From an uncultured bacterium (GTDB lineage Bacteria; Oederibacteriota; Muellerivitia; Muellerivitales; Muellerivitaceae), in NCBI GenBank assembly GCA_964525605.1, contig CAZGKT010000012.1:7771-71770 (forward strand): a stretch of 64,000 nucleotides of DNA, written 5' to 3'. Of this stretch, positions 3,607 through 41,984 are shown one piece after another. A program made the translations under genes and the position numbers. The number at the start of each line of letters is the position of its first letter. Positions within the stretch are counted from its first letter, which is position 1. The notes under the pieces were generated by a model that did no database searches, was not told the origin of the DNA, and saw nothing but the letters and a program-made list of their open reading frames with translations.

Positions 3607-3663
3607 GGTTATCCCCCGAGGAAAAACAAAGTCAAACCTGACCGTGTCTAGTTTAACAAAACG

Positions 3664-5550: not shown

Positions 5551-5664
5551 GGCCAAACCTCCCGGGAAGGATATAAAAGGAAAATGTTTTGGAAGAAAAC
5601 CCATGCGTGCATTTTACTTTTTTTTGTGGGTTTTTGAAAAAGTGTTGGGTGGTAGAACTTCAGC

Positions 5665-8708: not shown

Positions 8709-8716
8709 GATCATTC

Positions 8717-13012: not shown

Positions 13013-13029
13013 TTGCTTAAATTAATAAC

Positions 13030-13767
13030 TCAGTAATTCCAATTGAAAATATCGACGATCGCCTGAGAAGCCGTGCCCGAGCCATTGGTGTTGATTTGAA
13101 CCCCGATCAAGACGACCTGCGTGGGATCAAAGCTTCCCACCACGGCACCGGGTACGGAATAAGTCAAGGCCACGCATCCCGGTCCCGCGTTGATCCAGTT
13201 GCTGTAGGAAGAGGCCCAACTTTGGCCGGCACCGTCCTGGACGAAAACATACCCCCCTTGGGGGTAGGTGGCGTTGAACCCCGAAGCAAAGGAAATGACC
13301 GAGCTGATGTTTTTGCCGGCCAAGTTGGTAGCAGTCCCGAGGTTGTATTGGATGTTGGCCTGTTGACTGGTTGCCGTAAAACCGATCGTCACTTCCAACG
13401 CCCCCATATTCGGGGAACAGGAAGCGCTTGGATTGAATCCTGTGGTTACCGACACGCCCGCCGTGGATCCGCTCGCGTTGTAGTTCCATCCGGTGATGGA
13501 GGCCGCCGAACTAAAATAGTAGCCGGGCATCGGGGTCGCGGTCGGCATACCGGTAGGTGTGATCGTGGGAGACATCGTGACCGTGGGGGTGTTGGTCGGT
13601 GGAGGAACGGTCGGCGTTGGATAACCCCAATTGGGCTCGTTGGGATTGTTAACGCCGCATCCGGTGTAAAACAATGGAACGAGGGAAACCACCGCGATAA
13701 ACGCCAAAAACATGAGGACGGCCGAACGTTTCAAGGGAGTCTCCGTGAACCCGGGGCAAATTTTCAA
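13030..13767 (-). CDS. Lipoprotein with Pro/Thr-rich linker and beta-rich C-terminal domain
   Basis: Lipobox LFYTGCG. Linker PTPTVPPPTNTPTVTMSPTITPTGMPTATPMP. 17 nt upstream of OMP gene. Start uncertain (TTG 13767 or ATG 13713). Confidence 0.6.
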   Translation of the reverse strand: MKICPGFTETPLKRSAVLMFLAFIAVVSLVPLFYTGCGVNNPNEPNWGYPTPTVPPPTNTPTVTMSPTITPTGMPTATPMPGYYFSSAASITGWNYNASGSTAGVSVTTGFNPSASCSPNMGALEVTIGFTATSQQANIQYNLGTATNLAGKNISSVISFASGFNATYPQGGYVFVQDGAGQSWASSYSNWINAGPGCVALTYSVPGAVVGSFDPTQVVLIGVQINTNGSGTASQAIVDIFNWNY

Positions 13768-13850
13768 CGGTTTCAGTAAAGCGTTTTAATGAGGCTATCA
13801 CCCACGCCAAGAAACTGTCAAGAAAGTATTGCTTTTCATTGAAGCGCCCG

Positions 13851-14891
13851 TTAACCCCTCGCTCTCGAGGGGGCCTTGGCCGTGGATTCACGGACCACCA
13901 GCTCAACCGGGACCTCCAGCCGGACGGCCTTTTGGTTCCCGTTTTCAATCATCTGCAATACCCGGTTGACGCCCATCTTGCCCATGTACTCCTTTGCCAC
14001 GCTGATGGTCGTCAGGGGCGGATTCGTGTAATTGCTCATCGTGATATTGTCGAAGCCGACCACGCTCAAGTCTTGGGGCACCTTTCGGCCCGTCTCGTGG
14101 GCCGCCCTTAAAACCCCGGCGGACATCTCGTCGTTGACGCAAAAGAGGGCGGTCAAGTCCTTCCGTTTGACAAGAATTTCTTTCGCCCTTGCGTAGCCTT
14201 CCCAAAAATTCAAGTTGTCGGCCTTGAAGATCAGGCCATCGGAGGGCTCAATGCCGTTTTTCACCAGCGCCGATTTCCAACCCGCCAACCTTTCCTGGAT
14301 GCTGGGACGATCCCAAGCCGCGGCCAGGATACCGATTTGCTTGTGCCCAAGCCGGACGAGGTGTTCGACCGCCAGCACCCCGCCCTTGCGGTTGTCGATC
14401 TGAATCGTGTCGATTCCTTTCAAATGGGGAAAGTTGTCGATGGCCGCAATGGGGATTTTCCGCTTTTTCATGTCGGCCGCCATCTTGGGATCGCACCGGC
14501 CTATCACCAGGATTCCATCCACGTTTTTCTCTCGGACGATCTTGGGAAGGCTGGGATAGCCCTGGTAAACCGATTCAATATAGGAAAAGTATAGGTTGAA
14601 ACCCTGGGCCAGGGTTTCCTTCACCACGCCTTCGATCACGAAGGAATAGAAATGGTTCGAGATGGGCTGGTCCTCGAGGTAAAAAATCACCCCCAGATTG
14701 CGCGTTCTTTTCCCCGCCAAGCCCGCCGCGAGGGCGCTCGGGTGGTAGTCCAGCTTTTCCGCCGCCGCCATCACTTTGCGCTGGACCGCCTGGCTGATGA
14801 CCATGTCGGCCCGGCGGTTGAGAACGAAGGATACGGTGGTGATGGACACCCCCGCCGCCTTGGCCACGTCCTTGATTGTCACATGCTTCAT
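13851..14891 (-). CDS. LacI-family transcriptional regulator
   Basis: N-terminal HTH MKHVTIKDVAKAAGVSITTVSFVLN followed by periplasmic-binding-protein-like sugar-binding fold. Confidence 0.9.
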   Translation of the reverse strand: MKHVTIKDVAKAAGVSITTVSFVLNRRADMVISQAVQRKVMAAAEKLDYHPSALAAGLAGKRTRNLGVIFYLEDQPISNHFYSFVIEGVVKETLAQGFNLYFSYIESVYQGYPSLPKIVREKNVDGILVIGRCDPKMAADMKKRKIPIAAIDNFPHLKGIDTIQIDNRKGGVLAVEHLVRLGHKQIGILAAAWDRPSIQERLAGWKSALVKNGIEPSDGLIFKADNLNFWEGYARAKEILVKRKDLTALFCVNDEMSAGVLRAAHETGRKVPQDLSVVGFDNITMSNYTNPPLTTISVAKEYMGKMGVNRVLQMIENGNQKAVRLEVPVELVVRESTAKAPSRARG

Positions 14892-15116
14892 ATGAACTCC
14901 TCGCCTTTTTCAACGAACCTTTCAAGTCATTCGACAGGGCAATTATTCACCCGGGGAGATGCAAAATCAAAAAAGAAACCATCTTCTTTTACGAAGAAAG
15001 CTTCAACCGAATGCCCCCCCGAAAGGAAAGTGAGGGCGGAGGCTCGAAAGGAACCTAAAGCCCAAATAAACCAACCTTGCGATATTACTTTATATTTGGC
15101 GGATTAAAGCTAGAAT

Positions 15117-15132
15117 ACTAAAACCTTTTAGT
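15117..15132. promoter_or_regulatory. 16-bp palindrome ACTAAAACCTTTTAGT, candidate LacI-family operator
   Basis: Inverted repeat (7/8 per half) 56 nt upstream of the GH130 start, in the LacI/GH130 divergent intergenic region next to a TATATT -10-like element. Half-site ACTAAAAC recurs at ~17669 upstream of GH36. Confidence 0.3.
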
Positions 15133-15187
15133 TAATCTTAGAGTCGAAAGCCTTTTAAGGCCCGACCATCCAACCCGGAGGATTTCC

Positions 15188-16114
15188 TTGGCTAATGAGA
15201 CCGTGTTTAAGCGTTATTCCCAGAATCCCATCATCACCTCGGCGGCCGTGCCTGACGCGCACGTCATCATGAACAGCGCCGTGATCCGGTTCAAAGGGGC
15301 TTACGCCGGGGTCTTCCGGGTGGACACCCAGGAAATGGTCATGGAACTGCATGTGGGTTTCAGCCAGGACGCCCTCCATTGGGACATCCAGCCCCAGCGC
15401 CTGAAGCTTTACGGCAAGGTCCCAAAGGCCATTCCCTGCGGGATGGGTTACGACCCCCGCATCACCCAGATCGGGAATACCTATTACATCACCTGGTGCT
15501 ATTACCCCACCCCCGGACCCTCCATCGGATTGGCCTCGACCCAGGATTTCAAGAAGTTCACCCAACTTTCGACCATTCTCCTGCCCTACAACCGAAACGC
15601 GGTGCTCTTCCCCCGCAAGATCAACGGAAAGTTCGCCTTGCTTCACCGGCCTTCCGATAACGGCCACACGCCTTTCGGCGATATCTTCTACGCCACGAGC
15701 CCCGACATGATCCATTGGGGAAACCATGAGTTCGTTTTTGGAAGAACCAGCGGCTGGCAAATGACGAAGGTCGGGGCCGGCCCCACGCCCATCGAGACCA
15801 AAGAGGGGTGGGTCATCCTCTATCACGGCGTCCATACCACCTGTAACGGGTTTGTTTATTCCATGGGCGGCGCGATCCTCGATTTGGACCAGCCTTGGAA
15901 AGTGAAGTATCGGACGAAGCGATATCTGATGGCGCCCACCGAGCTCTACGAACGGGTGGGTTTCGTGCCCAATGTGGTCTTCCCCACCGCGGCGATCCTG
16001 GATGAAAAGACCAACCAGATCGATGTCTATTACGGCGCGGCCGACACCTGCGTTTGCCTGGCCTCGGCCGACTTCGGCGAGGTCGTGAAGTTTATCAAGA
16101 AGAACAGCTATTAA
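15188..16114 (+). CDS. Glycoside hydrolase family 130 (beta-mannoside phosphorylase/hydrolase)
   Basis: MANETVFKRYSQNPIIT...LHWD...YDPRI...LLHRPSD...YYGAADTCVCLA; typical GH130 (DUF377) five-bladed propeller blocks. Confidence 0.8.
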   Translation: MANETVFKRYSQNPIITSAAVPDAHVIMNSAVIRFKGAYAGVFRVDTQEMVMELHVGFSQDALHWDIQPQRLKLYGKVPKAIPCGMGYDPRITQIGNTYYITWCYYPTPGPSIGLASTQDFKKFTQLSTILLPYNRNAVLFPRKINGKFALLHRPSDNGHTPFGDIFYATSPDMIHWGNHEFVFGRTSGWQMTKVGAGPTPIETKEGWVILYHGVHTTCNGFVYSMGGAILDLDQPWKVKYRTKRYLMAPTELYERVGFVPNVVFPTAAILDEKTNQIDVYYGAADTCVCLASADFGEVVKFIKKNSY

Positions 16115-16316
16115 AAAATTCGATTGATTTACCGCAGAGACGCGGAGAACAACGTTTCACCGACTTATGGGCCCCTCTCTAAAAATTGCCTTTTTGGTTT
16201 TGTCGGCTCCAATAAACAAGGTTTTCTTTGTGTCTTGATGCCTTGGGGTAACCCATTATTAGGTTTCCTTATTTCTTTCGATTTTCTCCGCGTCTCCGCG
16301 GTTAAATTTTCTTCGT

Positions 16317-17612
16317 CTATTTTTTGAAAAAGTTCTTATTCACGTCCGCTGTCGCCTTTTTCAACGCCACCGCCGCCGTCTCGTCCCCGTTCCAGACCCG
16401 TTCCAGTGCCGAATCGATATGGCTCTTCCATTCCGCGATATTGGGGTCCAGCGGCTGCCAATGTCCGTCTTTTACCGCGTCCACCAGGAAAGCCTTGGAC
16501 TTGGGCTGTTGGTTGTCCAGGAAAACCGGCGACTGGGCCAGGGCCTTGATCGCCGGCTGGGTCAAACCGGTGGCGGCCATGTATTTCTCTCCCACCTCGC
16601 CCGCGAGAAACTTCACCAGCTCAAAGGCCAAGTCCGGGTGTTGGGAAGTCCGGATGATGCCGTAACCCGTCGCGCTCATGGGGAAACCCCGATGTCCCTT
16701 CGGCCCCAAGGGGAATTCCACCACATCCCAATCGAATGATTTGATCTCACGGAAACGGGGGGTCATCCAGATCCCGCTGTAGAACATGGCCCCCTGACCG
16801 TTGATGAAGTAATCCGAATTGCCCAACCCGCCCATGGCCGTGGAAGCGCTGGGGCTGGGGGTACAGCCGTACTTGAAGATGAGGTCGGCCCGGAACTGGG
16901 CTCCCGCGATGGCCTCGGGGGTATCCAACATGCATCGCGTGTCGTGGTTTATGTCATCCACCAGGGTTCCCCCGAAGGCGTAAACCCAGGCGTCCCAGGT
17001 CGGGTAATCATCCACGAATCCCCATTGGTCCGTCTTTCCCCCGGCGGCCTTCTTGGTCAGTTTTTGAGCGGTCGCCACGAACTCCTCGTAGGTCCAGTCG
17101 TTCTTCGGGTAAGGCAGGCCCGCTTCGTCGAATTTCTTCTTGTTGTAATAGATCACCGCGATCGGGGCGATATCCCGGGGGATGGCCGTGAGCATGCCGT
17201 TCACCGTGTAATGGTCGATCGCCTCGGGATAAAAATCCGTCAGTTTGATGGAAGGGTCCTTGTCCACATAGGGTTTCAGGTCCACAAATAAACCCCGGGT
17301 GGTAAAGGAAGACATCTGTTCCGCGTTGATGGCCATCACGTCCGGGGCCTGGTTGGCCGAGAAATCGGTCAGGATCTTGGTGATATATTCGCCATAGGGC
17401 GCCCGTTGAAGAACCACCTCCACATCCGGGTGGGCCTTCTTGAAGTCGTCGATCGCGAATTGGACGATCTTGTTCTCCTCCACCCCGCCCCAGCCGATGC
17501 ACGAGAGCGTGACTTTCCCGTTGTTCTTCGAACAGCCGAGGGGGCCTAAAAGAAGAGGCCCAAAGAACGATACAAAAATGGAAAGAGTCAAAGGAACCAT
17601 AAGATTTTTCAT
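16317..17612 (-). CDS. ABC transporter solute-binding lipoprotein (family 1, sugar-binding)
   Basis: Lipobox LLGPLGCS. SBP_bac_1-like sequence throughout. No permease or ATPase genes in the window. Confidence 0.8.
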   Translation of the reverse strand: MKNLMVPLTLSIFVSFFGPLLLGPLGCSKNNGKVTLSCIGWGGVEENKIVQFAIDDFKKAHPDVEVVLQRAPYGEYITKILTDFSANQAPDVMAINAEQMSSFTTRGLFVDLKPYVDKDPSIKLTDFYPEAIDHYTVNGMLTAIPRDIAPIAVIYYNKKKFDEAGLPYPKNDWTYEEFVATAQKLTKKAAGGKTDQWGFVDDYPTWDAWVYAFGGTLVDDINHDTRCMLDTPEAIAGAQFRADLIFKYGCTPSPSASTAMGGLGNSDYFINGQGAMFYSGIWMTPRFREIKSFDWDVVEFPLGPKGHRGFPMSATGYGIIRTSQHPDLAFELVKFLAGEVGEKYMAATGLTQPAIKALAQSPVFLDNQQPKSKAFLVDAVKDGHWQPLDPNIAEWKSHIDSALERVWNGDETAAVALKKATADVNKNFFKK

Positions 17613-17734
17613 GAATAACCTCCGTTGATGGCCGATTATATCAAAGGGATATTTATTACCAATAAAAGACTAAAACGATTTAATCTTTTCAGGTTATTCT
17701 ACGGTTCGATTACCTCTATCCTATCGGGATAACC

Positions 17735-19924
17735 ATGATCCATTTCGACCCAGACCAAAAGATCTTCCGATTGATCTCCGACCGATCGGTTTCGATGATG
17801 GCCGTCCACCCGGCCGGGGGGCTGGGCTTCCTCTATTGGGGGAAGACCCCCGCGCCCGAGGTCGAACAGGGCTTTACCCAGGAATGGGAGGAGAAGACCC
17901 GGGACATCACCCCCAACACCGACCTGAACATGGTCCGGCGGGATTTCGCCGACTTCGGCCACAATGACCTGCGCACCCCGGCTTATCTCGTCGAACTGAA
18001 AGACGGGTCCCGGATCACCGAATTCCATTACCTTTCCCATGAGATCCTCCCAGGAAAACCTGACTTCCCAGGTCTTCCCTCTTCCCAGGTTTTGTCCGAA
18101 GACCAGGTTCAAACGCTCCGTTTAACCCTTATTGACCAGCCCACCGGCCTGGAGATCGACCTCTTCTATACCCTCTATCCCCATCGGGATATGTTGGTTC
18201 GTCGAAGCCGGATTCGAAACAAGGGAACCCAGGCGGTCAAGGTTTTGAAATTCGCGACTTTGGGCCTCGACCTGCCCCCAGAGGACTACCACCTCGTGAG
18301 TTTCGGCGGGGCCTGGGCCCGGGAGCGAATGTTCCAGGAACGCCCCCTGCTCCAGGGGACCGTTCGATTGGAAAGCCGCCGGGGCATCTCGTCCCACGAG
18401 ATGAACCCCTTCGCGATGGTCACGAAGGGCCGTGCGAGCGAGGATCAAGGCGAGGTTTTCGGCTTCGCCCTGGCCTACAGCGGGAACTGGCTCCTGGAGG
18501 CCGAGGTCCATCAAACGGGGTGGCTCCGCCTCAACATGGGCTTGAGCGACTTCGGCTTTCAATGGTTCCTGGCGCCTGGCGAAACCTTCACCGCCCCCGA
18601 ATGCCTGATGGCCTACTCGCCCTCGGGTTTTGACGCCATCAGCCAAACCTATCATTCGTTCGTCCGCGACCGGGTCTGCCGGGGGAAATGGGCCCAAAAA
18701 CCCCGGCCCATCCTCATCAACAATTGGGAAGCCACCTATTTCGATTTCAAACACGAGGATATCCTCCGCATCGCCAAAACCGCCGCGCAAACGGGCGTCG
18801 AAATGATGGTTTTGGACGACGGCTGGTTCGGCAAGCGGGATAAGGACGACAGTTCCCTGGGCGATTGGTTCGTCGATCTTCGAAAGCTCCCCAAAGGGCT
18901 TCCCGCCCTCTCGAAAGAGATCCACGACCTCGGCCTGAAATTCGGTCTTTGGTTCGAACCCGAGATGATTTCGCCCCGGAGCCGGCTCTACGAAAAACAC
19001 CCCGACTGGTGCCTGCATGTGAACGACCGCGAACGAAAGACCGCGCGCAATCAACTAGTGCTGGATATGACCCGCCCAGAAGTACGGGATTACCTTTTCG
19101 ACACGATCGGGCGGGTGTTGGAAGAGACCCAGGTCGATTATGTGAAGTGGGACATGAACCGCTCCCTCACCGAGGTCGGGAGCCCCTCCCTGCCCCCCGA
19201 ACGCCAGGGCGAGGTCACCCATCGGTACTGCCTGGGGGTCTATGAACTCATGGAACGATTAAACAAAAGATTCCCAAATGTTCTCTTCGAAGGCTGCGCG
19301 GGCGGCGGCGGGCGTTTCGACCTGGGGATCTTAAGTTACCAACCCCAGATATGGTCCTCGGACAATATGGATGGTTGGGACCGGCTCCTCATTCAATACG
19401 GAACCAGTTTTTGTTACCCGGCCCTCACCCAGGGCTCCCATATCGGTTCCTCCCCCAATCAAATCACACGGCGGGAATCCCCCTTGAAATGGCGGGCGCT
19501 CCTGGCCATGTCAGCGAACCTGGGGGTGGAAGCGGATATTTCCAAATGGAGTGAGGGGGATAGAAAGGAACTGGCCGGTTATATCTCTCTATATAAGGAG
19601 ATCCGGCCCCTGGTCCAATTCGGGGATTTTCACCGTTTGGAAGCCCCCTATGATTTCGCCCGGACGGCCTGGATGTTTACGAGCCGGGATCAAAAAGAAG
19701 CCCTGCTCTTTATTTTCCAGTCCACCCCGCCACAAGGCCCGGGGGTGAAGCCCGTTTGCCTCAGGGGTTTAGACCCCGCCCTCCTTTACCAAATCAAGGG
19801 TGAGGGAGCGGCGTTCACCGGCGAACACCTGATGTCGGATGGATGGCTGCCGAAGGAATTCCAGACCGGCCGCGTTCCCACGCTTTTCCATGCCGCCCTT
19901 TACCGCCTCCAGGCCGGGAACTAG
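17735..19924 (+). CDS. Alpha-galactosidase, glycoside hydrolase family 36
   Basis: MVLDDGWFGKRDKDDSSLGDW, KFGLWFEPEM, KWDMNR catalytic blocks. 729 aa. Confidence 0.9.
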   Translation: MIHFDPDQKIFRLISDRSVSMMAVHPAGGLGFLYWGKTPAPEVEQGFTQEWEEKTRDITPNTDLNMVRRDFADFGHNDLRTPAYLVELKDGSRITEFHYLSHEILPGKPDFPGLPSSQVLSEDQVQTLRLTLIDQPTGLEIDLFYTLYPHRDMLVRRSRIRNKGTQAVKVLKFATLGLDLPPEDYHLVSFGGAWARERMFQERPLLQGTVRLESRRGISSHEMNPFAMVTKGRASEDQGEVFGFALAYSGNWLLEAEVHQTGWLRLNMGLSDFGFQWFLAPGETFTAPECLMAYSPSGFDAISQTYHSFVRDRVCRGKWAQKPRPILINNWEATYFDFKHEDILRIAKTAAQTGVEMMVLDDGWFGKRDKDDSSLGDWFVDLRKLPKGLPALSKEIHDLGLKFGLWFEPEMISPRSRLYEKHPDWCLHVNDRERKTARNQLVLDMTRPEVRDYLFDTIGRVLEETQVDYVKWDMNRSLTEVGSPSLPPERQGEVTHRYCLGVYELMERLNKRFPNVLFEGCAGGGGRFDLGILSYQPQIWSSDNMDGWDRLLIQYGTSFCYPALTQGSHIGSSPNQITRRESPLKWRALLAMSANLGVEADISKWSEGDRKELAGYISLYKEIRPLVQFGDFHRLEAPYDFARTAWMFTSRDQKEALLFIFQSTPPQGPGVKPVCLRGLDPALLYQIKGEGAAFTGEHLMSDGWLPKEFQTGRVPTLFHAALYRLQAGN

Positions 19925-21079: not shown

Positions 21080-21125
21080 GCGCGGGAAAAATTTCCACGT
21101 CGTTTCGTGGGTCCGCCCGGCCGAT

Positions 21126-23090
21126 TTATTTCAGCGATTTGGGAACCGTTCCCTGCGGAGGCAGAACCTGCAAGCCGTTGGAGACCATCAGGCTCTCCAG
21201 GTCCGATTTTTTCCAGTAGGAAATTCCGTTGGTTTTTTTAGCTTCCGAATCCATGACCTGGTAATACGGGGTTCCGTCCTTGCCGGTAAAGGCTTTCGAC
21301 ACCGCGATCCAGTGGGACCAGCTGGCCTGGGGATTGGCCACCTGATTGGAAATGCGAACCACGACCGGTCTTGGGTTTTGGGCTAAGGCCGCCGGGATAT
21401 CCTTGACCGGCACCGCGTTAATATCGCCCAGGGCGCGGGCGGATTGGAGCATGTCAAACCCGGTGAGTCCCCCCAGTTTCGTCACTTCAAGATCGGGGCT
21501 TTTGAGCACGCTCACCGGCAGGGAATAATCGGTCCGAACCTTGCCCAGGGCGACGGCGGCGGCGACTCCGTAAGGGGTTTCGGCGGCGTTGGCGAGGGCG
21601 AAAATGCCGCAGTCCAGGTTGTTTTGCAGGCCGGCCGCCACCTGGTTGGAGCCCTTCCCTTTTTTGGCCGCCTTCGCCAGGGCCGCGTACTCGGCTTCAC
21701 TCCGGTCGAGCGTTTTGTCGTTGTACAGCTTCGTCGCGGCGTCGCCGGTGACGGGAGTCACGGCGGACGGGTTGTCAAAGATCGGCGCCGTTTCGTAGAT
21801 GGTGACCGCCTTGCTCATATAACGGTTGATCTCATCCTGGCTGGCCCCCGCCGCCTTCAACCGCGCGGCGCCCAGGTCGTTGTAAAACTGTTTTTCCTTC
21901 TTCTGATTCGCGTTGTACCTTTGAATCAGGTCCTTTTTCTTGGCTTCGGGCAAACTTTGGAAATTCGCCGCGTCCTGGATGATGCGGGCCTTCTCGGCGG
22001 TGATATCCTTCTGGGTGTTGATGAATGGTTCCGCCTGGCCGGGACTCAGGTCGGGCTGCAAGGCGGCGCCCGAGAGGGGGAAATTTTCATCGGCCGGGCT
22101 GTTCGCTCCGCCCGTCCCTCCCTCGCCGGTTTCAGGGCCGGTTCCGGTCGCGGTCTCCCCTCCCGGCAGGCTTAAATTCGGCACCACTCCGTTGGGCGTG
22201 TCAAACCCCAGGTTGCTTTCGGCCTTCATATCCTCCAGCGAGGGTTGGTTCAGGGCATCGGGTCCGGTGACGGCGTTTTGCTGGAGTTGATACATGCCTT
22301 TCCCCCCCGGCATGTCATACCCGTCCCCGTTCGTCCCGCCGGCCGTGAAAAAGGGATTGCGCCCCTCGCCGGGTGAGCCCAGGTTCGATTTGGATTTTCC
22401 CAGTTTTTTGTCCATCTCCTCGGCGAGATAGCCCCTGTAGGCGATCGCGACATACTTAAAAACCGTGGGGTTGAGGTTATGGATCAGGTTGTAGCCGGCC
22501 CCCAGGACGAACACCGAGGCCATGACCAGTTTACGAAGGGCTTCCCGGGCCTTCCCCGAGAGCGGGTCGCCCAATTCATAATCCAGGCTTTCGGCGATCG
22601 GCCTTCCCTTCACCGCGCCCAACCTGATTTCGCATTCACACTCGATGTTTTTTTTCGGGCCCAGCGCCCTCAATAACCGTTTCTGGTCCTTGTCCCGCAG
22701 TCTCAGGGAGCCGTTGGTGGGAAGCAGACGCTTATCCCTGCTTTCTTGACCGCCCTGAATCAGGGTGTGAAACCGGCCGTTGGCGTCGGCCAGGGCCGCG
22801 TCGCCGGCGATCGGCTGTAAAACCAGGACATCGTGCGGGCCGAAATGTTTTCGAGGCAGGGCGGTTCCAAAACCGGAGGGAAGCAATCCCAGGACACGGT
22901 AGAGTCCCAGGGGAGTATCTCCAAAGGGAAGAAGCGGATTACGGGTGGGGTTTCCATGGCGAAGGGCGGCGGAAGAATCGGCCCGTCCGCAAATGGGAAA
23001 GGGGCCCGCCAAGCGGCGGCCGTCTTCTTCCAGGTGAACGGTCCCCTCCACATCGCGTTGGGGGGGCAAGGTCACGATCAGTTTGCGCAT
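21126..23090 (-). CDS. Two-domain protein: YkuD (L,D-transpeptidase)-like domain with Ser in place of catalytic Cys + TM + low-complexity spacer + C-terminal papain/transglutaminase-like Cys-His domain
   Basis: TPLGLYRV ... RFHTLIQGG ... NGSLRLRDKDQKRLL lines up with the YkuD TPxGxF ... HGT ... SHGCIRMxNxD core. C-terminus has QNNLDCGIFALA ... SHWIAV. Start chosen at ATG 23090 (GGAGAGGGT immediately upstream); track ORF starts at TTG 23168. Confidence 0.65.
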   Translation of the reverse strand: MRKLIVTLPPQRDVEGTVHLEEDGRRLAGPFPICGRADSSAALRHGNPTRNPLLPFGDTPLGLYRVLGLLPSGFGTALPRKHFGPHDVLVLQPIAGDAALADANGRFHTLIQGGQESRDKRLLPTNGSLRLRDKDQKRLLRALGPKKNIECECEIRLGAVKGRPIAESLDYELGDPLSGKAREALRKLVMASVFVLGAGYNLIHNLNPTVFKYVAIAYRGYLAEEMDKKLGKSKSNLGSPGEGRNPFFTAGGTNGDGYDMPGGKGMYQLQQNAVTGPDALNQPSLEDMKAESNLGFDTPNGVVPNLSLPGGETATGTGPETGEGGTGGANSPADENFPLSGAALQPDLSPGQAEPFINTQKDITAEKARIIQDAANFQSLPEAKKKDLIQRYNANQKKEKQFYNDLGAARLKAAGASQDEINRYMSKAVTIYETAPIFDNPSAVTPVTGDAATKLYNDKTLDRSEAEYAALAKAAKKGKGSNQVAAGLQNNLDCGIFALANAAETPYGVAAAVALGKVRTDYSLPVSVLKSPDLEVTKLGGLTGFDMLQSARALGDINAVPVKDIPAALAQNPRPVVVRISNQVANPQASWSHWIAVSKAFTGKDGTPYYQVMDSEAKKTNGISYWKKSDLESLMVSNGLQVLPPQGTVPKSLK

Positions 23091-23124
23091 ACCCTCTCCC
23101 CAGGCCGTTAAATGGATGTATTTG

Positions 23125-26100
23125 TCACAATTGTATGTTTTTTCGTCCGCCCTTTCCATTTTTTTCAAGCCCTAAAATCTCCGCATAGCGCCGGACCATC
23201 AAATCCATCGTAAATTTTTCGTTAACGATCCTTCGGCTGGCCTTGCCAAAGAGTTCTCGTTTCGCCCGATTCGTGAGCAATAGGCGGACCTGGTGGGCCA
23301 TTTCCCGGGGATCGGTATCGGAAACCAAATAGCCGTTCACGCCCGTCTGAACCTGTTCTGCCGTTCCGCCGTGTTTCGTGGCGACAATGGGCAGGCCCAG
23401 GCTCATGGCTTCCAGCGAGGCGTTGGGCGACCCATGATCCGTGCCGAGCAGGAGAAAAACCTGGAACTCCCGCAGGTAGGGCGCCACGTTGCCCTGGTGC
23501 CCCGCGAATTCCATGTTGGCGACGCCCATTTCTCCCGCCCGCCGGTGGATGAATTTCCAGTATTCCTCGTACTTGGGGTTTCCCGCTCCCACCAGTTTCA
23601 ACCTCACGCCGGGCAGGCGCCGGTTGAGCGCGGCGAGCATATCGACTAGAAACTCGATGCGTTTACTGGGCAAAATTCGACAGCAGGTTCCGATGATCCA
23701 ATCCCGCCCCGCCTTCCCTTCCGCTTCTCCCCCGGGTCCGCCTGCCGTTGCGCCCGAGAGATCCGGCACCCCGTTGGGAATGACCGAAAGCTTTCGGCCC
23801 GGCATCCGGATGCCGGGGGGATACCCGCCCTCGTATTTGGAGATGAAATGGTCGAGGCGGTGGAAATAATCTTTCCCGTCCAGGGCGATACGCTGTTGGA
23901 AGTCGGCCGCGTTCTGGATATCCGCGAAGAGCCAGGGGCCCGGGCTGACGTCGATCAGGCGCACCCGGCCTGGAGGGAGGATCTTGGCGAGCAGTAATTT
24001 CACCTTCGCCTCCACGTTCCAAAAAACCAGCGTTCCGATTCCCAAATGCCGGACCATGGAAAGGATCTGTTCGACCCGGTTCAGGTAGGTTCGGGCCGAG
24101 CGCATGGAAAACACGGGCACGCCCGCCGATTCCAGTTCTTCAAGGAAAGGCTGGTGGTTGATCGATTGGATCACCCCCAGCCAGGTGCGCCCCTCCCGGG
24201 GCAGGCGGCAGAGGAGATTCACCAGCGATCTCGGCGATCCCCCCAGGTTCAGGTTGTCGGTTAAAAAAAGAATCCCGGGTTTGTCCGGGGTTTCCGGGTA
24301 TAGGGCCGGCATGCCGTATTGCCCCAGGTAACTCCACAGCCGGGGAACCAGGTCCGCGTCCGGCGGCCGGACCGGGACCAGCCTTTGTCCCCTCGACAGA
24401 ACCTGGACGATCCCCTTGACGTAAGCTCCGATGTCCGCCGTATCCTTCACAATGACCGCCTCGGGAGGCAGGCATTCCCGGTTCCCCCCCGCGTCGGCGG
24501 AAACGATGGGGCAACCGGCGTGAACCGCCTCCAGCGTGGCAACGCTCAAGCCCTCATATAGACTCGTATTCAAGAAGACATCAAAGGCCGCGTAATAGGG
24601 CCCCACATCCTTGACCGGTCCGGGCGTGAGCAGGTCCGGCATCACTCCCAGGTCCAGCGCCTGCTTGCAGGTCGCCTCATAGGTCACCCGGCCGTTTCCC
24701 CATTGATGGTCCCACCCGCCCAGGATCATGAGTTTGGCGTTCTGGTGCCGGCGGATTTCGGCCAACACCCTCACGGCGCGGGTGTAGGCTTTCTGGGTCT
24801 TGAATTCCCCCACCATGCCGATGAGCAGGGTGTTCTCGGGGATCGAATGGAGATCCCGGATTTTCTGGCGCTGGGCCAGCAGATCCTCGGGGGTGAACCA
24901 TCTTTGCAATTCATGGCGCACCGCCACGACCGGTTTGGGGCATTTTGCCGCGCGCAGCTGCTCGGCCACGTCCTGTGAAACGGCCGCCACGTAAGGCACA
25001 TGGGGATCATCAAATTCGGCCGGGGCGTTTTGCCAGGAAGGCTTGGAATTCTGAATGACCGGTATGGTGATGACGCCGTAGCGCCACAGGGCCTTCAAGT
25101 AGGGCATGTGGATCATGTGGGTAAAGACCACCGGGGTGGGCGAGGCCAGGATCTCAAAGGCCGCCATCCGCATCTTGGATTCCAGGTCGAGGGAGTGGAG
25201 CCGGTAAACCCGCCTCTGGGGATCGCCTTTATAATCGTAAGAAGGTTTCACGTCCGCCAGGATGAAAAGCTTGGACGTGACCGGGTTTTTCCCCAGGCCC
25301 TGCAGGGTTTCAATCACGCTCCGTTCGGCCCCTCCCCGCGCCAGACTCGGAAGCATCAGGTTGATATGGTGGGAGTGGGATATTTCGGGAGTGACCGGCT
25401 GGCGCACCTCGGAGGTTGAAATCTGCACGGGCATGGGAGGAATTTCCGGCGAGGGGGCGGGGGTTTGGTTTTCCTCCTGCGCCGGTGGAGCCGAATCCAC
25501 CAACCCATATTGTTCATAAAGATGTCCAAGGGTCGATTCGGCCGGGACCGAGTCCTTGTTGGGCGCCTCCTCCACGCATTTCACACCCCGGTATTTGCCT
25601 TCGTCCATCGCCAGGGTGCGCCACATTTCGTTGATCCAGTGGATGGCGTGCCATTCTTCCGGGATGGGTTCTTCCCGCTCGATGAAGGGCAGAATGATCT
25701 TTTCCCACTTGTCCTCGTTGCAGATCCCCGGAAGGATGAACCGGTCCAACTTCAACTTGCGCACGTTGCGGGAAAGCACGCGGTTGGGCATCAGCCAGGC
25801 GCTTTTCTCGTCGGCGTCCCGCCATACCTGCTCGTAGGTCATCTTCATCAACCGGCTCTTGGGGGGGCATTTCATGATGTTTCCCACTACCCCTACCCGG
25901 TGCGGGCGGAAGACGTACTTCCCGGGAAAATTCAGGGGTTTCAGGCAGGTCACGTCCATATCCACCCAATACCCGCCCTTCTCATATAGAAGCTTGAAGC
26001 GAAACAGGTCCGAAAAGGGCGCGCCTACGCTCCCCCGGCCCACGCCGGTCTCCGGATCGATCTCCTTCTTATAGAAGATCTTGTCCTTGGGGATGATTTC

Positions 26101-27480: not shown

Positions 27481-29637
27481 TTGTCCCTCTCCATCTTCAG
27501 CTACAAGCCGCCCCACGACGGCACCTTAGCCCATATTGAAAACGGGGTCCTGAAGTTTTCCATCGAGGGCGAAAAGGATTCCCATCCCCGCTTTTCGGGT
27601 TTTAATTCCTTTTACCGCGCCATGAAGGTGGCCGGCGCCTTCGATGTCCGGCCCGACGTGATCGCCTGGGGCGGGGGGAGTTCCCCCCGGGACCCCATGG
27701 ATCTCTACGACGGCATCGCGCCCGAACTCATTCTGGCCGAAGACCTTCAATTATTCGGCAAGAAAACCCTCCTCTTTCGATCGAGCCACGAACGGGCCCA
27801 TATCTTTTCTTCCTATGGCCTTTCCCCCTTTCCCCAGGGCCAGCCCGTCTATGCCCTCGTCTGGGAAGGAGGGATCGGAGCCTTCTACGAGATCGACGAA
27901 AAGCTGAACATCCACCCCTTCGGGACGGTTTTAAGAAACCCCGGCCACCGCTACAGCATTCCCTACTCGGTTGCCAACCCCCAGAACGCCAAGTCCAAGG
28001 CCGACTGGTTTTTGCACGGCTATTACGCGGGTAAAACCATGGCGCTGGCCGCCTACGGCGAAATCATGGGCCGGGACCAAAGGAAGGATTGGTCGGCGGA
28101 AATCGACGCCTTCTTGAAAATGAAAATGGTCTTTGAAATGCCGGGAAACCGCCCGCAGGACCAAAAGGCCGCGGAATCCTACGTCGCCGAGCTGAAAAAA
28201 AGCCGGCTCTTCGACATCGGGGTCGAATCGGAAGACTTCAAGGATTTCACCTACGCCCTCAGCGCGAAAATTTACGGCCTCTTCCACCATTTCGCGAAAC
28301 AAAACCTGAAAAAGGGTTATCCCCTCCTTATCAGCGGCGGGTGCGGTTTGAACTGCGATTGGAACACCCAATGGAAGGAAAGCGGATTATTTTCGGACCT
28401 GTTCGTCCCGCCCTGCACCAACGACAGCGGCATCGCCATTGGCATGGCGGTGGACGCCCAGAGGCACGTCTCCGGAAACGCCAAACTCGACTGGTCCGTC
28501 TATTGCGGGGAGTCTTTCGTGGAAGACGCGGTCGATTTAACCGGCTTCCGGATTTCGCCCTTGAATTTGGACGAAGTGGCCGCCCTGCTGGAAAAGGGAA
28601 AGGTCCTGGCCTGGGTCGAGGGCCGTTACGAGATGGGCCCCCGAGCCCTCTGCCACCGTTCGCTCATTGCCGCGCCCTTCAAGAAGGAAATGACCGACCG
28701 CCTGAACAAGATCAAGAACCGGGAGCCCTTCCGGCCCATCGCGCCCATTTGCCTGGAGGAAGAGGTTTCCGAATACTTCGATTGGCGGGGCCCCAGCCCC
28801 TTCATGCTGTATTTTCAAAGGGTCCGATCGCCCCAACTCCAGGCCGTCACCCACGTCAACCGGACCGCGCGGGTCCAGACCGTCAACGACCGGACCAACC
28901 CCCGAATGGCGTCCCTTTTGCGGGTCTTCAAGAAGAAAACGGGGTTCGGGGTTTTGTGCAACACCAGCCTGAACTTCGCCGGCATGGGTTTCATCAACCG
29001 CCTGTCCGACCTGGTGCGCTACACCCTCAAGACAGGGTTGGACGGCTTCGTGGTGGAAGACCGGCTTTACTTGAAGCGGGCCTTCGACTACCGCCGCCCC
29101 GATTCGGCAGCTTCCCTCGCCCCTTCCCGCCCCTATCTTTCGCTTTCCGAGCCGGTCGTCACCTATCCCTTGACGAACAAGACCGAGACTGAAATCACGC
29201 CCCAAGCCATCCGCTTAAAATTCGAAACCCCTTCCGACATCTGCGTCTTGAGCTTTTCTTCCAACGTGGGCCCTTTCGCCGCCCCCGGCGTGGTGGATGT
29301 GAAGGGTTACGGCTTTTTCCAATTCCAGGCCCAGGCGCCGAAGGGGTTGAAGTTTTTCGTGACCATGACCGAATCCGGGGCCAACGCCCCCGATGCCGGG
29401 TCCTTTTCCGGCGTGAACGGGGCGGACGGGGAACGTTATTTCTTCCCGACCCAGCTGGGAACCGGGGATTGGGCCACCTACCGGTTGGACTTGGCTGCCC
29501 TGAACCTGTGGCGGTACTGGGGAAATCAAAAGGGAAATAATATCTTGGATCTACAGGGTTTGAGATCGATCGAGTTTTTCGTTCTGGGAAACCAGAAAGG
29601 CGAGATTCAGTTGAGGCATTTGGAGTTCACGGTTTAA
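27481..29637 (+). CDS. NodU/CmcH-family carbamoyltransferase with extra C-terminal beta-sandwich (CBM-like) domain
   Basis: TTG start. LSIFSYKPPHDGTLAHIENGVLKFSIEGEKD (ASKHA N-domain) and LLISGGCGLNCDWN...NDSGIAIGMA (GGxxLN block). Residues ~545-718 form an additional domain (...WATYRLDLAALNLWRYWG...IEFFVLG...). Confidence 0.75.
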   Translation: MSLSIFSYKPPHDGTLAHIENGVLKFSIEGEKDSHPRFSGFNSFYRAMKVAGAFDVRPDVIAWGGGSSPRDPMDLYDGIAPELILAEDLQLFGKKTLLFRSSHERAHIFSSYGLSPFPQGQPVYALVWEGGIGAFYEIDEKLNIHPFGTVLRNPGHRYSIPYSVANPQNAKSKADWFLHGYYAGKTMALAAYGEIMGRDQRKDWSAEIDAFLKMKMVFEMPGNRPQDQKAAESYVAELKKSRLFDIGVESEDFKDFTYALSAKIYGLFHHFAKQNLKKGYPLLISGGCGLNCDWNTQWKESGLFSDLFVPPCTNDSGIAIGMAVDAQRHVSGNAKLDWSVYCGESFVEDAVDLTGFRISPLNLDEVAALLEKGKVLAWVEGRYEMGPRALCHRSLIAAPFKKEMTDRLNKIKNREPFRPIAPICLEEEVSEYFDWRGPSPFMLYFQRVRSPQLQAVTHVNRTARVQTVNDRTNPRMASLLRVFKKKTGFGVLCNTSLNFAGMGFINRLSDLVRYTLKTGLDGFVVEDRLYLKRAFDYRRPDSAASLAPSRPYLSLSEPVVTYPLTNKTETEITPQAIRLKFETPSDICVLSFSSNVGPFAAPGVVDVKGYGFFQFQAQAPKGLKFFVTMTESGANAPDAGSFSGVNGADGERYFFPTQLGTGDWATYRLDLAALNLWRYWGNQKGNNILDLQGLRSIEFFVLGNQKGEIQLRHLEFTV

Positions 29638-30956: not shown

Positions 30957-33900
30957 ATGAAACACGGCTTATTTCTTGCTCTCGTTCATAGGGTGAAACC
31001 TCCCCAGATCATCCGGAAACTCGCCAACCTTCGCCGCCACTTCCCCTTCCGCTTTCCCGCCTCCTTCCTCGTTTCCCGGCCCACGGAGGCTCCCATCCGC
31101 TCCGAGCTTTTCAGCACCGAACGGTTCGACCAGCACGCCCGCTCGCTGGCGGCGGCGCAAACCCTCACCGACGACCCCAAAGCCGGAGCCCAGCTCTTTC
31201 CCCGGCTCCGCGAAAACGAAAATATCCTCGGGGAGGCCTTCCGCTACCTCACCGGCGAGGTCCAGAAAAAGAAACCCATCAACCCCGCCGGCGAGTGGCT
31301 TTTGGATTCCTACTACGTGGTGGAGGAACAGCTCCGCGACATCAAGCGGTTTCTGCCCCACGACTTCTACAACGAGCTCCCGAAACTTTCCGATGGTTTC
31401 TTGAAGGGCTACCCCCGTGTCTACGGCCTGGCCTGGGCTTACGTGGCCCATACGGACAGCCGATTCGACCCCGAATCCCTCATTCATTTCGTGCGTTCTT
31501 ACCAGCAGGTGGAGCCCCTGACCATCGGGGAACTCTGGGCCCTGGCCATCACGCTTCGGGTCGTGATGGTCGACAACCTGCGCCGCATCGCCGTATACCT
31601 CGTCACCTCCCAGGAGGCGCGCCAGGACGCGGACGCCTTCGTGGACGAGCTGTTAGGGCTCATCGAGGAATCCTCGCTTTCCAGCCGCCCCACGGCCGCC
31701 AAACTCCAGCGCCAATCCGTCCATCCGGCCTACCTGGTCCAGCTCATCCAGCGCCTGCGCTACCAGGACCCCCGGGGAACGCCCGCGGTGGACTGGCTGA
31801 ACGAAAAACTTGCCTTCGAAAAAACCACCGCCGAGGAAATGGTCACCTCCGTCCACAGCCTCCAGGCCGCCAACAACTCCACGGTGCGAAACATCATCAC
31901 CAGCTTCCGCAACATGACGACCTTCGACTGGCAGGATTTTTTCGAGTCCGTCAGCCTGGTCCAGGAGATCCTTGCCCGGCACCCCCTTTATTCCCAAATG
32001 GATTTCAAGACCCGCAACTCCTACCGCACCGCCGTTGAGGAACTGGCCAAGGGATCGGGTAAAAGCGAATTAGAAATCGCGCAGCTAGCCCTCCAAAGGG
32101 CGGCCGAAGGCGCGGACCACCAGGGTTTTTCAGCCCGGATGGGCGATCCCGGCTATTCCCTCTTCGACGAGGGCCGCCGGGCCTTTGAGAAGAAAATCGG
32201 ATTCCAGGTCCCGTTGAAAAAACGTCTCCGCCGTTTTTGCACCGACTACCCGGCCCTCACCTACATCGGCAACATTCTCTTCATGGCCACGGTCATCCTC
32301 TGGATCGCGGCGCTGATGAACCCCCACCTGCCCCAGGCCGAAAGGTTTCTTCTCTTGTTTTTGGGCCTCTTCCCCGCCGGGGACCTGGCCGTCGGCTGGG
32401 TCAACCATTTCGTCACCGGCATGGTGCCGCCCCGCCATCTCGCGCGCCTGGAGTTCTTGGCGGGCCCCACCCCGGAGTTCCGGACCTTCGTGGTGGTTCC
32501 CACCCTGCTGGAAAAGGAATCGAACATTCCCGAACAGTTGGAAAAACTGGAAGTCCATTACCTTTCCAACGCCGACGGGGAAGTCTATTACGCCCTGCTG
32601 ACGGACTTTCCCGATTCTTCCGTGGAAATTTCGCCGGAGGATGAAAAAAAACTCAACCTCGCCGTCCAGCTAACCGCCGAGCTGAACCAACGCCACGGAC
32701 CCGCAGCCGGTGGAGCTTCCCGTTTTTTCCTCTGCCACCGCAAAAGGCTTTGGAACCCGCTGGAAGGAAAGTGGATGGGCTGGGAACGAAAGAGGGGGAA
32801 GCTTCACGAATTCAATAGGCTTTTGCGGGGAGCCCAGGATACGAGCTTCCTGCGTCCCGATGGCTCCGTTCTCACTGTCCCTTCCGGGGTCCGTTACGTC
32901 ATCACCCTGGATGCCGACACCAAGCTTTCCCCCGGCGTGGTCAACCACCTGGTGGGCATCCTGGCCCATCCGCTCAACCAGGCAAGGCTGGACCCCGTCC
33001 GCCAAAAGGTCGTGGAAGGCTACGGCATCCTCCAGCCCCGGGTCACGGCTTTCCTTCCAGCCCAGGACGAAAAATCCATCTTCCAAAAACTCTTTTCAGG
33101 CGATTGCTGCATCGACCCCTACGCCTCGGCCGTTTCGGATGTGTACCAGGACCTCTTCGGCGAGGGCAGTTTCACCGGCAAGGGCATCTACGACGTGGAC
33201 GCGGTGGAACAATCCCTGAAAGGGCGGATCAGCGAAAACCGCCTCCTGAGCCACGACCTCTTCGAGGGCTGTTTCGCCCGTTGTGGCTACGCCAGCGACC
33301 TGGAATTCTTCGAGGAATTCCCCTCCCACGCCGAAACCTCCACCCTGCGCAACCACCGCTGGATCAGGGGCGATTGGCAGCTCTTGCCCTGGATCTTCGG
33401 CCGGGAAGGCAACTCGCTCTCCACCCTTTCCCGTTGGAAAATGGCCGACAACCTGCGCCGAAGCCTCTCCCCCATCGGCACCGTCTGCCTTCTCATCGGG
33501 GCCTTCTGCCTGCCTCAGGTCTACCAGCCCGGCTGGGTAGGCTTGGCCTTGTTAGGGATAGCCCTTCCTTCTTATATACCCTTCTTCAAGGACCTGGTCC
33601 TGTGGCGCCGCCCCCTCCATTGGAGGGACCATTTGGGCGAAATTACACGGGATTTCGTCCTCGGGAGCGGTCAGTTCCTCGTCAATCTGGTTCTGGTGGC
33701 CCACCGTGCCTGGATGCACCTTGACGCCATCCTCCGCACCCTCTGGCGTCTGTTCGTTAGCCACCGCAACCTCCTTGAATGGGTCACCGCCGCCCAGGCC
33801 AACTCTAACTCTGCCCTTAGCCTCTCTCATTTCCTTCGAAGGATGAAGGGTTCGATCTTCATCGCGTGTTTCGCGGCGGCCTTAACGGCCCTGTTCAACC

Positions 33901-41716: not shown

Positions 41717-41984
41717 GGGAGTAGGGTTGATACCCGATGACCAACAGGTTCGACTAAATCGAACATAGGTCGATGTCAGCCAGTTTTATCGTTGAACTTG
41801 GGCAGATTTCCCCTTGAAAAATGAATTTATATAACCGCATGGGTAAACCTGTCGTAGTGTCCGGGGAACCGAGGCATGACCTGGAGCCCGGCCTCTTTTT
41901 GAAACCAGTGGTATTATTACAGTAATTCCCAATTACGCCGTTAGGTGAATGGGTTCGATCCTATATATGACTGGAGAATATGAC

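Follow-up and report, generated by a model that had tools for sequence, protein, structure and literature searches.

The 64,000-nucleotide stretch of DNA analysed here (hereafter the window) comes from an uncultured bacterium of the Muellerivitaceae (Oederibacteriota; assembly GCA_964525605.1, contig CAZGKT010000012.1) and carries, on its minus strand, an open reading frame (ORF) for a protein with a YkuD-fold domain at its N terminus and a papain-like domain at its C terminus. Directly upstream lies the gene of a giant soluble glycosyltransferase (GT), and this pairing recurs in six or more phyla. The N-terminal domain, judged by residue states across its relatives, is a pseudoenzyme, and it forms the constant module of a large family whose C termini vary. 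The features of the locus are collected in Table 1.

The frame is open from a TTG at 23168 (21126..23168), which would give 680 amino acids (aa), the length adopted in an initial annotation of this DNA made by reading the letters. The strings and coordinates cited there are all present, but the length is not retained. The ATG at 23090 is the start that the sequences support, because all homologues open with M[RHY]K[LI]IV.LP.NRD, a GGAGAGG Shine-Dalgarno sequence lies just 5′ of this codon, and independent gene calls on the contigs that encode a 98%-identical homologue (P0001) also arrive at 654 aa; the TTG was rejected. Residue numbers below are those of the 654-aa protein, that is, of the 680-aa track minus 26, so that Ser154, Cys520 and His619 of the initial annotation become Ser128, Cys494 and His593, with codon positions that had been given correctly. 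Its two distances to the GT gene, a 34-nucleotide (nt) gap from the ATG and a 44-nt overlap from the TTG, are likewise right. A terminator scan found none inside the 34-nt spacer, and the hairpin that begins beyond the ORF is likely, from its sequence, to mark the end of a GT-ORF transcription unit; a convergent HlyIII gene lies downstream. Searches with the whole protein returned nothing from NCBIfam or, by phmmer, from the PDB, and from Pfam only EIN3 at E 0.17, which we dismissed as spurious.

Table 1. Features of the GT-ORF locus, in window coordinates.
Feature	Position	Strand	Basis or remark
Family ORF, 654 aa	21126..23090	(-)	ATG start; stop codon 21126-21128
N-terminal YkuD-fold domain, aa 1-168	22587..23090	(-)	AlphaFold model; family profile
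AALADANGR, aa 98-106, family signature	22773..22799	(-)	invariant in the 23-sequence alignment A1
Gln112 codon, catalytic His column of YkuD	22755..22757	(-)	alignment with B. subtilis YkuD and the L022 and L023 relatives
Ser128 codon, catalytic Cys column	22707..22709	(-)	alignment with B. subtilis YkuD
Arg130 codon, Arg of the YkuD C-x-R motif	22701..22703	(-)	aligned to R of GCIRM; Arg in 164/165
Signal-anchor segment, aa 180-206, KAREALRK then LVMASVFVLGAGYNLIHNL	22473..22553	(-)	hydrophobicity; homology to internal Tat signals
Gly/Ala/Pro/Asn/Thr-rich linker, aa 221-365, about 150 aa, predicted extracytoplasmic	21996..22430	(-)	composition
Helical, charged segment, aa 366-480	21651..21995	(-)	sequence; AlphaFold helices at low confidence
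C39-like papain-fold cysteine peptidase domain, aa ~481-654	21129..21650	(-)	alignment A2, AlphaFold, Foldseek
Gln489 codon, putative catalytic residue	21624-21626	(-)	
Cys494 codon, putative catalytic residue	21609-21611	(-)	
His593 codon, putative catalytic residue	21312-21314	(-)	
Asp614 codon, putative catalytic residue	21249-21251	(-)	
Spacer between GT stop and family ORF ATG, 34 nt	23091..23124	(-)	GGAGAGG ribosome-binding site just 5′ of ATG 23090
Terminator-like hairpin, 16 nt past ORF stop	21095..21110	(-)	consensus match only
Giant soluble multi-domain GT, 1383 aa	23125..27276	(-)	Pfam
NodU-like carbamoyltransferase, divergent	27481..29637	(+)	Pfam Carbam_trans_C 2.6e-55

The N-terminal domain has the YkuD beta-sandwich fold. 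An AlphaFold model built from 23 homologous N termini (alignment A1) reached a predicted local distance difference test score (pLDDT) of 92.8 and a predicted template-modelling score (pTM) of 0.88, and its matches in a fold search include Csd6 (13.1), Pgp2 (12.7), Ldtfm (11.5), Bd1075 (11.3), Tlde1a (10.5) and Bacillus subtilis YkuD (10.4). The YkuD-like domain recognised in the initial annotation is thereby supported. The B. subtilis YkuD sequence, checked against PDB entries 2mtz and 1y7m and aligned with the family by MAFFT, places its TPTGEFYI opposite TPLGLYRV, its GIHG opposite LIQG, and its KGCIRMHNKDVIEL opposite NGSLRLRDKDQKRL of the window protein. The family signature AALADANGR falls in a gap of B. 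subtilis YkuD in this alignment and is thus an insertion, situated just ahead of the strand that would carry the histidine and beside the former active site.

Neither this assignment nor that of the C-terminal domain comes from direct profile matches; both are based on modelled structure together with transitive homology. The profile checks envisaged at the outset gave no match of the window protein to PF03734, PF03412, PF01841 or NlpC/P60, and the N-terminal domain found no PF03734 match even at E <= 10, the Pfam gathering threshold not being reached. Among the A1 relatives, 5 of 23 touch PF03734 weakly (best E 0.011), and distant relatives in loci L022 and L023 match Pfam YkuD at E 1.3e-4 and 2.5e-3, the former, which retains the catalytic His and Cys, with 23.0 bits against a cutoff of 23.4. 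One family representative has a precomputed PF03734 match. An hhalign comparison of the family alignment with one YkuD sequence on its own did not reach significance (probability 0.5%), but placed TNGSLRL on SKGCIRM. PDZ domains, which the N-domain profile drew from PDB sequences at E 0.07-0.65, were rejected as spurious, the common element being an 'iGGa...rLr..d.lRl' string and the fold search pointing to YkuD.

Both catalytic columns of YkuD hold other residues in the window protein, Gln112 standing in that of the histidine and Ser128 in that of the cysteine, at equal spacing (H-x15-C in YkuD, Q-x15-S here). The L022 and L023 relatives read IHGG...HGCLRL and IHSG...NGCIRV in the same columns. 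The MAFFT alignment thus bears out the Ser that had been noticed at the nucleophile position; the conserved His that had been read in RFHTLIQGG is instead His108, four residues upstream of the true column and variable in the family. Column counts were taken from an hmmalign alignment of 165 sequences, the sample for all fractions of 165 below. The His108 column holds His in 47, Gly in 31, Arg in 25 and Glu in 19; the Gln112 column Gln in 80, His in 51, Ile in nine, Glu in six and Ser in five; and the Ser128 column Ser in 76, Ala in 34, Cys in 19, Gly in 15, His in 13 and Asn in seven. His and Cys are retained together in only 13 sequences. The corresponding motif has been described as invariant in the YkuD superfamily (PMC4398505).

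Ala or Gly stands in the nucleophile column of 49 of the 165 sequences (30%) although the domain is otherwise well conserved in them, and this column is therefore not under catalytic selection. Other columns are kept: Asn47 in 164, Asp58 in 161, Asn104 in 143, Arg106 in 163, and Arg130, the Arg of the C-x-R motif, in 164. Because both catalytic columns drift freely across the relatives, the alignment identifies the domain as a pseudoenzyme that retains part of its ligand-binding apparatus. Two further ideas were examined and rejected. Cys34 as a substitute nucleophile is not conserved (Cys in 72, Ala in 66), and in a possible N-x-S sequon at N126-G-S128 the Asn is replaced by Asp in many relatives.

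The domain is widespread. A profile search of 1.84 billion representatives recovered 1015 clusters at E <= 1e-3, of which 731 remain at <= 1e-10 and 238 at <= 1e-30, and in 155 of 165 sequences it begins no later than residue 12. The full-length architecture of the window protein is common to only P0001 and P0002 (75% identity); P0003 shares the N-terminal ~40%, and the other homologues share the N-domain alone (23-49% of the protein) and differ in their C termini. A Pfam census of 103 full-length members found Pesticin-type muramidase domains at the C terminus of six, NlpC/P60 in three, FecR in two, and CHAP, Tae4, Phage_lysozyme and DUF3471 in one each. The rest have no recognised C-terminal domain, and three more match YkuD weakly in the N-domain. 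The unassigned tails (about 85 of 103) consist of low-complexity sequence rich in Pro, Ser, Thr and Gln together with coiled coil. Hence the fusion that had been singled out as a singular union of two thiol-enzyme folds represents one choice of cargo within a modular family of no fewer than 1000 clusters, whose unvarying element is the degenerate YkuD module. Neither the N-domain nor the C-domain family is covered by a model in Pfam, NCBIfam or PADLOC, the PADLOC defence models match neither the family ORF nor the GT, and our literature search found no account of a YkuD domain that is dead or cytoplasmic, or of its pairing with a GT; the folds of the two domains are known, and the cassette may be new at the system level. 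Two members, P0011 and P0013 (L004 10001-11344 and L001 8642-9964), have in common a C-terminal domain, apparently beta-rich from its sequence, whose last residues are ...FGVKF or ...AKFQF; signals of outer-membrane beta-barrels typically close with an aromatic residue.

No signal peptide precedes the fold, whose first strand begins at residue 2, in agreement with the initial annotation. The hydrophobic helix noted there after the domain is supported as a membrane segment at aa 188-206, where the Kyte-Doolittle 19-mer average reaches its maximum, a moderate 1.45. Positive charges lie on its N-terminal side, and a conserved [DE]xDP(P) motif stands between the N-domain and KAREALRK. Many relatives have in the equivalent segment a twin-arginine translocation (Tat) signal some 200 residues into the protein, with SRRSWLRTML followed by a hydrophobic region (h-region) and AxA (for example ETSRRSWLRTMLIAAGAFASVPSLLLFSPPKAYGE); by a strict test, an RR motif with a hydrophobic stretch occurs at this position in 42 of 165. 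The window protein reads AR in place of RR, a degenerated twin-arginine, and the segment is internal, so that it is not an N-terminal Tat signal and is probably, from its sequence, a plain signal anchor. Since no signal peptide precedes the N-domain and the anchor follows it, we infer that the domain is cytoplasmic and that the protein beyond about aa 206 lies outside the cytoplasm. The window protein has none of the marks of an extracytoplasmic YkuD domain (signal peptide, lipobox or N-terminal anchor), whereas P0151 and P0172, rare relatives that retain His and Cys, resemble true L,D-transpeptidases in having a signal or lipobox at the N terminus.

Tat signals placed internally are known from the Rieske protein of Streptomyces (PMC3471235). 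Many family members resemble it in having S/T-R-R-x-[FW]-L-R and an h-region far from the N terminus, but a soluble folded domain rather than Sec-inserted helices lies ahead of the signal, and the window protein has AR for RR. A tatA/B/E gene is found at one family locus (L029 14904-15179, equivalent to L030 11676-11951), where it follows, together with genes for a carbamoyltransferase, an epimerase and a weakly O-FucT-like protein, the 1128-aa member P0067; this protein has both His and Cys, an RR signal and TIG domains, and the GT is split into two genes at its locus. Some members without an h-region, including P0005, P0006 and P0010, have instead R-[RH]-F-x-P-P-x-F-x-L, a poly-Gly/Ala run and G-Y-[DN], which looks from its sequence like a decayed form of the Tat-signal/AY segment that other members have.

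The partner gene encodes a GT with three kinds of parts: an unassigned N-terminal module of ~300 aa, which orthologues may lack or encode in a gene of its own, a GT32-like domain with a DXD motif, and two GT4 domains. Pfam recognises Glyco_trans_1_4 (4e-45) and Glycos_transf_1 (8.5e-42), each over two stretches, and Gly_transf_sug (1.7e-6). The enzyme has no transmembrane (TM) segment (Kyte-Doolittle maximum 1.26). Against NCBIfam and the PDB it shows generic GT4 similarity (stp2, EpsE, PelF) below all curated cutoffs, and the profile of its DXD domain matches Och1 and SetA, a protein glucosyltransferase, weakly.

A GT orthologue, 42-77% identical over about 1000-1370 aa, lies directly upstream of the family gene in 23 of 25 non-redundant loci, which include metagenome-assembled genomes labelled FCPU426, Acidobacteriota, Verrucomicrobiota, Gamma- and Alphaproteobacteria, Rhizomicrobium and Eremiobacterota; in several of them the two genes overlap by 8-13 nt. 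The two unlinked loci, L022 and L023, encode stand-alone proteins of ~190 aa with His and Cys retained. Loss of the catalytic pair is no strict condition for linkage, as P0067 keeps both residues and is nevertheless GT-linked. The reciprocal test was a metagenome scan with the GT DXD domain (alignment A4; 80 of 457 relatives kept), in which 40 loci contained the whole GT 3′ end together with 600 nt or more of sequence beyond it. The family gene followed within 950 nt on the same strand in 33 of these (31 within 260 nt), lay elsewhere in the locus in three and was absent from four. The functional link with the upstream GT suggested in the initial annotation is therefore far stronger than was claimed. 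In L086, L104 and L024 the family gene is divergent from the GT, upstream of it on the opposite strand.

Across the 25 loci the GT is the only constant neighbour. The carbamoyltransferase of Table 1 has counterparts in L006, L016 and L029, making four loci with the window; UDP-glucose dehydrogenase also occurs in four, and radical SAM/SPASM genes in six (L013, L014, L015, L016, L018 with two copies, and L024). No immunity-like, lysis or polysaccharide-export genes recur in the 25 loci, nor do genes of the type VI, V or VII secretion systems (T6SS, T5SS, T7SS), and around the His/Cys-retaining relatives of L022 and L023 there are transposases and uncharacterised genes only, with no T6SS or immunity genes. 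Several smaller features of these loci may be recorded. The radical SAM enzymes beside the pair have SPASM ahead of the radical-SAM core, an order that is normally the other way round. A ~400-aa family without a Pfam or PADLOC match lies directly downstream in four loci (L011 4021-5205, L015 6121-7308, L016 11959-13197, L019 6423-7346), the L016 copy overlapping the stop codon of the family gene. In L002/L007, a 64-aa fragment (11349-11540) 62% identical to the GT C terminus (aa 1305-1368) closely follows the family gene and is probably left over from duplication or rearrangement of the cassette.

Compared with YkuD L,D-transpeptidases and carboxypeptidases such as Csd6, Pgp2, Ldtfm and B. subtilis YkuD, the family domain has the same TPxG strand, the same strand, 15-residue loop, strand and helix geometry, and the Arg of C-x-R. 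It differs from them in the replacement of His by Gln and of Cys by Ser (in the window protein), in lacking a signal peptide or lipobox, in its AALADANGR insertion, in falling below threshold in Pfam, and in being always the N-terminal module of multi-part, GT-linked proteins.

The part predicted to be exported begins with a linker of 151 aa, confirmed to be rich in Gly, Ala, Pro, Asn and Thr, that had been described as a ~150-aa low-complexity spacer. It contains a GFDT motif at nt 22194-22208, and motifs of this type recur in the linkers of several relatives; G[FWY]D[TKNR] is present in 19 of the 165 tails, which show an enrichment of Pro, Ser, Thr and Gln. Beyond the linker and a charged helical segment, the last ~170 residues form the papain-like domain with a Cys-His pair predicted in the initial annotation, and here both the fold and the residues are confirmed. 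Gln489, Cys494, His593 and Asp614 are invariant in A2, an alignment of nine C-domain sequences 25-81% identical to that of the window protein. The AlphaFold model has a mean pLDDT of 62.7, with 70-87 in the core, and puts Cys494 at the N terminus of a helix and His593 on a strand. PeiR is the best structural match, and Foldseek independently ranks C39 domains first (E 3e-5 to 5e-4, probability 1.0, target TM-score 0.55-0.63). A papain-like fold with the Gln/Cys/His/Asp set places the domain in clan CA, and the model suggests a divergent C39-like cysteine peptidase with an apparently competent active site. Profile searches found no Pfam match at E <= 10, PF03412 included, and nothing relevant in the PDB.

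The domain resembles C39 peptidases (PCAT1, ComA, LahT), PeiR (C71) and staphopains (C47) in its papain-like fold, with Cys on a helix, His on a strand, an upstream Gln and a downstream Asp. Unlike C39 peptidases, it has no Pfam C39 match and is not fused N-terminally to a bacteriocin ABC exporter, being instead C-terminal in a bitopic protein with no adjacent ABC transporter, and it ends in a conserved GTVPKLLR tail. Eight homologues of the domain were found, seven of them ~320-370-aa proteins, several with N-terminal Sec signal peptides, which is consistent with extracytoplasmic action. By analogy, because PeiR is the best structural match and relatives bear wall hydrolases in this position, the peptidase probably acts on cell-wall or envelope peptides. 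The closest C-domain homologue, P0030 (51% identity), looks frameshifted or garbled near the catalytic Cys, probably an assembly or gene-call artefact, and was left out of A2. The tail reads P-x-x-G-T-V-P-K-L-L-R in the family (P0031-P0037) and PPQGTVPKSLK in the window protein (21129-21160); from its sequence, it might serve for sorting, form a propeptide or be a substrate of the peptidase itself. One stand-alone homologue is surrounded by TPR and uncharacterised genes only (L025/L026).

We propose that the dead YkuD domain docks the GT and that the GT modifies the protein before export, a joint reading that seems to us plausible, if somewhat short of probable. The product would be a bitopic inner-membrane protein with the dead domain (aa 1-~180) inside, a signal anchor (aa ~180-206) in the membrane and the rest exported. 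Itself without catalysis, the domain would serve the co-translated GT for docking or recognition, as a 'leader'. The argument is that among its companions only the soluble GT is invariant, and that the domain, cytoplasmic and non-catalytic, stands ahead of an export signal and of cargo that can be swapped. Through this leader the GT would glycosylate the protein, probably on the linker, before or during export; the leader would then be left in the cytoplasm, or clipped off at the AxA/AY site, and the exported peptidase would work in the periplasm or on the wall, in the slot that muramidase, NlpC/P60, CHAP or Tae4 domains occupy in relatives. Hints of a modification context come from the radical SAM/SPASM, UDP-glucose dehydrogenase and carbamoyltransferase neighbours, from the Pro/Ser/Thr/Gln-rich tails, and from the weak likeness of the DXD domain to the glucosyltransferase SetA.

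Cytoplasmic protein-glycosylation systems (GtfA/GtfB with serine-rich-repeat adhesins, SdgA/SdgB) and the leader-directed modification of ribosomally synthesised and post-translationally modified peptides (RiPPs) offer an analogy. The cassette would be like them in setting a soluble GT4-type enzyme beside a Ser/Thr/Pro-rich substrate with an N-terminal recognition element, and in having radical SAM/SPASM genes at some loci. Unlike them, it would use as recognition element a folded 170-aa dead-enzyme domain, and Tat-type or anchor export rather than SecA2/Y2 or a C39-ABC transporter. A 'flagellin deglycosylase' idea for Csd6/HP0518, which might have linked YkuD to glycosylation, was found unsupported for Aeromonas caviae AHA0618 or HP0518 expressed in A. 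caviae (PMC4398505), and we did not make use of it.

Several observations weigh against this proposal. Binding of the GT to the protein, and its glycosylation, are deduced indirectly, and GT4/GT32-type enzymes more commonly build polysaccharides than glycoproteins. The anchor of the window protein lacks RR (KAREALRK) and is only moderately hydrophobic, so that its topology rests partly on homology, and the peptidase domain has a model of moderate confidence and is recognised by no Pfam or PDB profile. In the sub-class exemplified by P0005, P0006 and P0010, where the domain is joined to a muramidase by poly-Gly, there is no hydrophobic segment, which leaves the export route unexplained, and the short linkers offer few Ser/Thr acceptor sites.

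A broader version of the proposal, possible though on the doubtful side, is a new route to envelope glycoproteins in which a YkuD leader recruits a GT, and in some genomes radical-SAM and carbamoyl-transfer enzymes, for cargo that is exported by an internal Tat signal or anchor while the leader stays in the cytoplasm. To our knowledge, the YkuD fold has otherwise been described only in periplasmic cysteine enzymes whose substrate is peptidoglycan. A cytoplasmic dead YkuD module of this abundance, tightly coupled to a giant GT and found in abundant soil phyla (Acidobacteriota, Verrucomicrobiota, FCPU426, Eremiobacterota, Proteobacteria), is thus a blind spot of annotation, for which the AALADANGR signature and the two-gene synteny now provide diagnostics. 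Glycosylation before export, if true, would mean a new logic for envelope glycoproteins and a new use of internal Tat signals; were the family one of toxins or autolysins, the domain would be a new delivery or maturation module.

A toxin family is the first of the alternatives to be weighed. The proteins might be polymorphic antibacterial toxins or bacteriocins, with the N-domain as a delivery, receptor-binding or translocation module or a Tlde1-like T6SS scaffold, the C termini as wall-degrading warheads, and the GT maturing or decorating the toxin or protecting the producer. The constant N-module with variable C-terminal toxin domains (Pesticin, NlpC/P60, CHAP, Tae4) is a trait of polymorphic toxins, and swappable C-terminal enzymes and tandem paralogues with different C termini (L001, L005) are likewise shared with pesticin, colicin M-like, Rhs and contact-dependent inhibition (CDI) systems. 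The absence of a signal peptide would fit as well, and the Tlde1 effectors of T6SS, with a structurally altered LD-transpeptidase fold (PDB 7uma; PMC9638812), also have a small YkuD-like domain without one. In Tlde1, however, His and Cys of the motif are intact, and an immunity gene accompanies the effector gene in T6SS clusters (PMC9638812), whereas the window protein has lost the catalytic pair and T6SS or immunity genes were not found nearby. Nor does the family have the cognate immunity or secretion linkage of polymorphic toxins: no conserved immunity-like gene lies downstream, tandem paralogues abut directly, one 412-aa ORF recurs in four loci only, and the secretion and lysis genes sought in the 25 loci and around the His/Cys-retaining relatives are missing. 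The family has a GT partner instead, most of its members carry only low-complexity or coiled-coil tails, and the internal Tat signal or anchor between constant module and cargo implies that the domain is retained in the producer's cytoplasm. We therefore consider a toxin unlikely, and neither immunity nor secretion-system genes at the loci examined lend support to the toxin-like effector suggested in the initial annotation.

Alternatively, and with much the same low likelihood, the dead domain may tether or regulate a polysaccharide synthase, holding at the membrane the soluble GT, the maker of an envelope glycan that some genomes would carbamoylate, while the periplasmic part (FecR-like, hydrolase or peptidase domains) senses or remodels the wall and so links polymer synthesis with the state of the envelope. 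The similarity of this multi-domain GT to exopolysaccharide (EPS)-type GT4 enzymes, all below cutoffs, would suit such a role, as would the carbamoyltransferase and UDP-glucose dehydrogenase nearby, the abundance of glycan-metabolism genes in the window, and the anti-sigma-like layout of some members (cytoplasmic domain, TM segment, periplasmic FecR). The cassette nevertheless has no conserved Wzx, Wzy, ABC or OPX genes, P0005, P0006 and P0010 have no membrane segment for tethering, and AxA cleavage-type sites after the h-region in many relatives suggest that the exported part is released.

It is also conceivable, though quite improbable, that the whole protein is an autolysin exported non-classically, in which the dead domain binds stem peptides and so targets the C-terminal hydrolase or peptidase. 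Retention of the substrate-binding motif Arg and of near-invariant Asn and Asp alongside the loss of catalytic residues is what such a wall-binding module would show, and the cargo domains are peptidoglycan hydrolases, but 155 of 165 sequences have no signal peptide ahead of the domain, the export signal, where present, follows it, and the strict linkage to a cytoplasmic GT is left unexplained. The active L,D-transpeptidase or anchoring enzyme of the initial annotation, working through Ser128 alongside a second thiol peptidase, has in its favour the YkuD fold and a Ser placed exactly in the Cys column, where it is the commonest residue, yet it is very improbable given that Gln replaces the general-base His, that the nucleophile column varies to Ala or Gly in conserved relatives, and that a domain on the cytoplasmic side of the anchor, lacking an export signal, cannot reach peptidoglycan.

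Elsewhere in the window, some 3.7 kb from the GT gene, a 2968-aa ORF (30957-39863, plus strand) combines GH94 supersandwich, catalytic and glucoamylase-like domains and looks, from these, like a cyclic beta-1,2-glucan synthase. A bacterial serpin (41949-43304, plus strand; Pfam E 3.7e-98) is encoded near a 1097-aa STAND/NB-ARC NTPase with TPR repeats (44656-47949, minus strand). At the other side of the locus, 2365-19924 holds a utilisation cluster of the mannan/galactomannan type, with two GH5 enzymes, a SASA esterase, a 1431-aa protein bearing mannanase galactose-binding-like domains, a LacI regulator, a solute-binding protein and a GH36 alpha-galactosidase.

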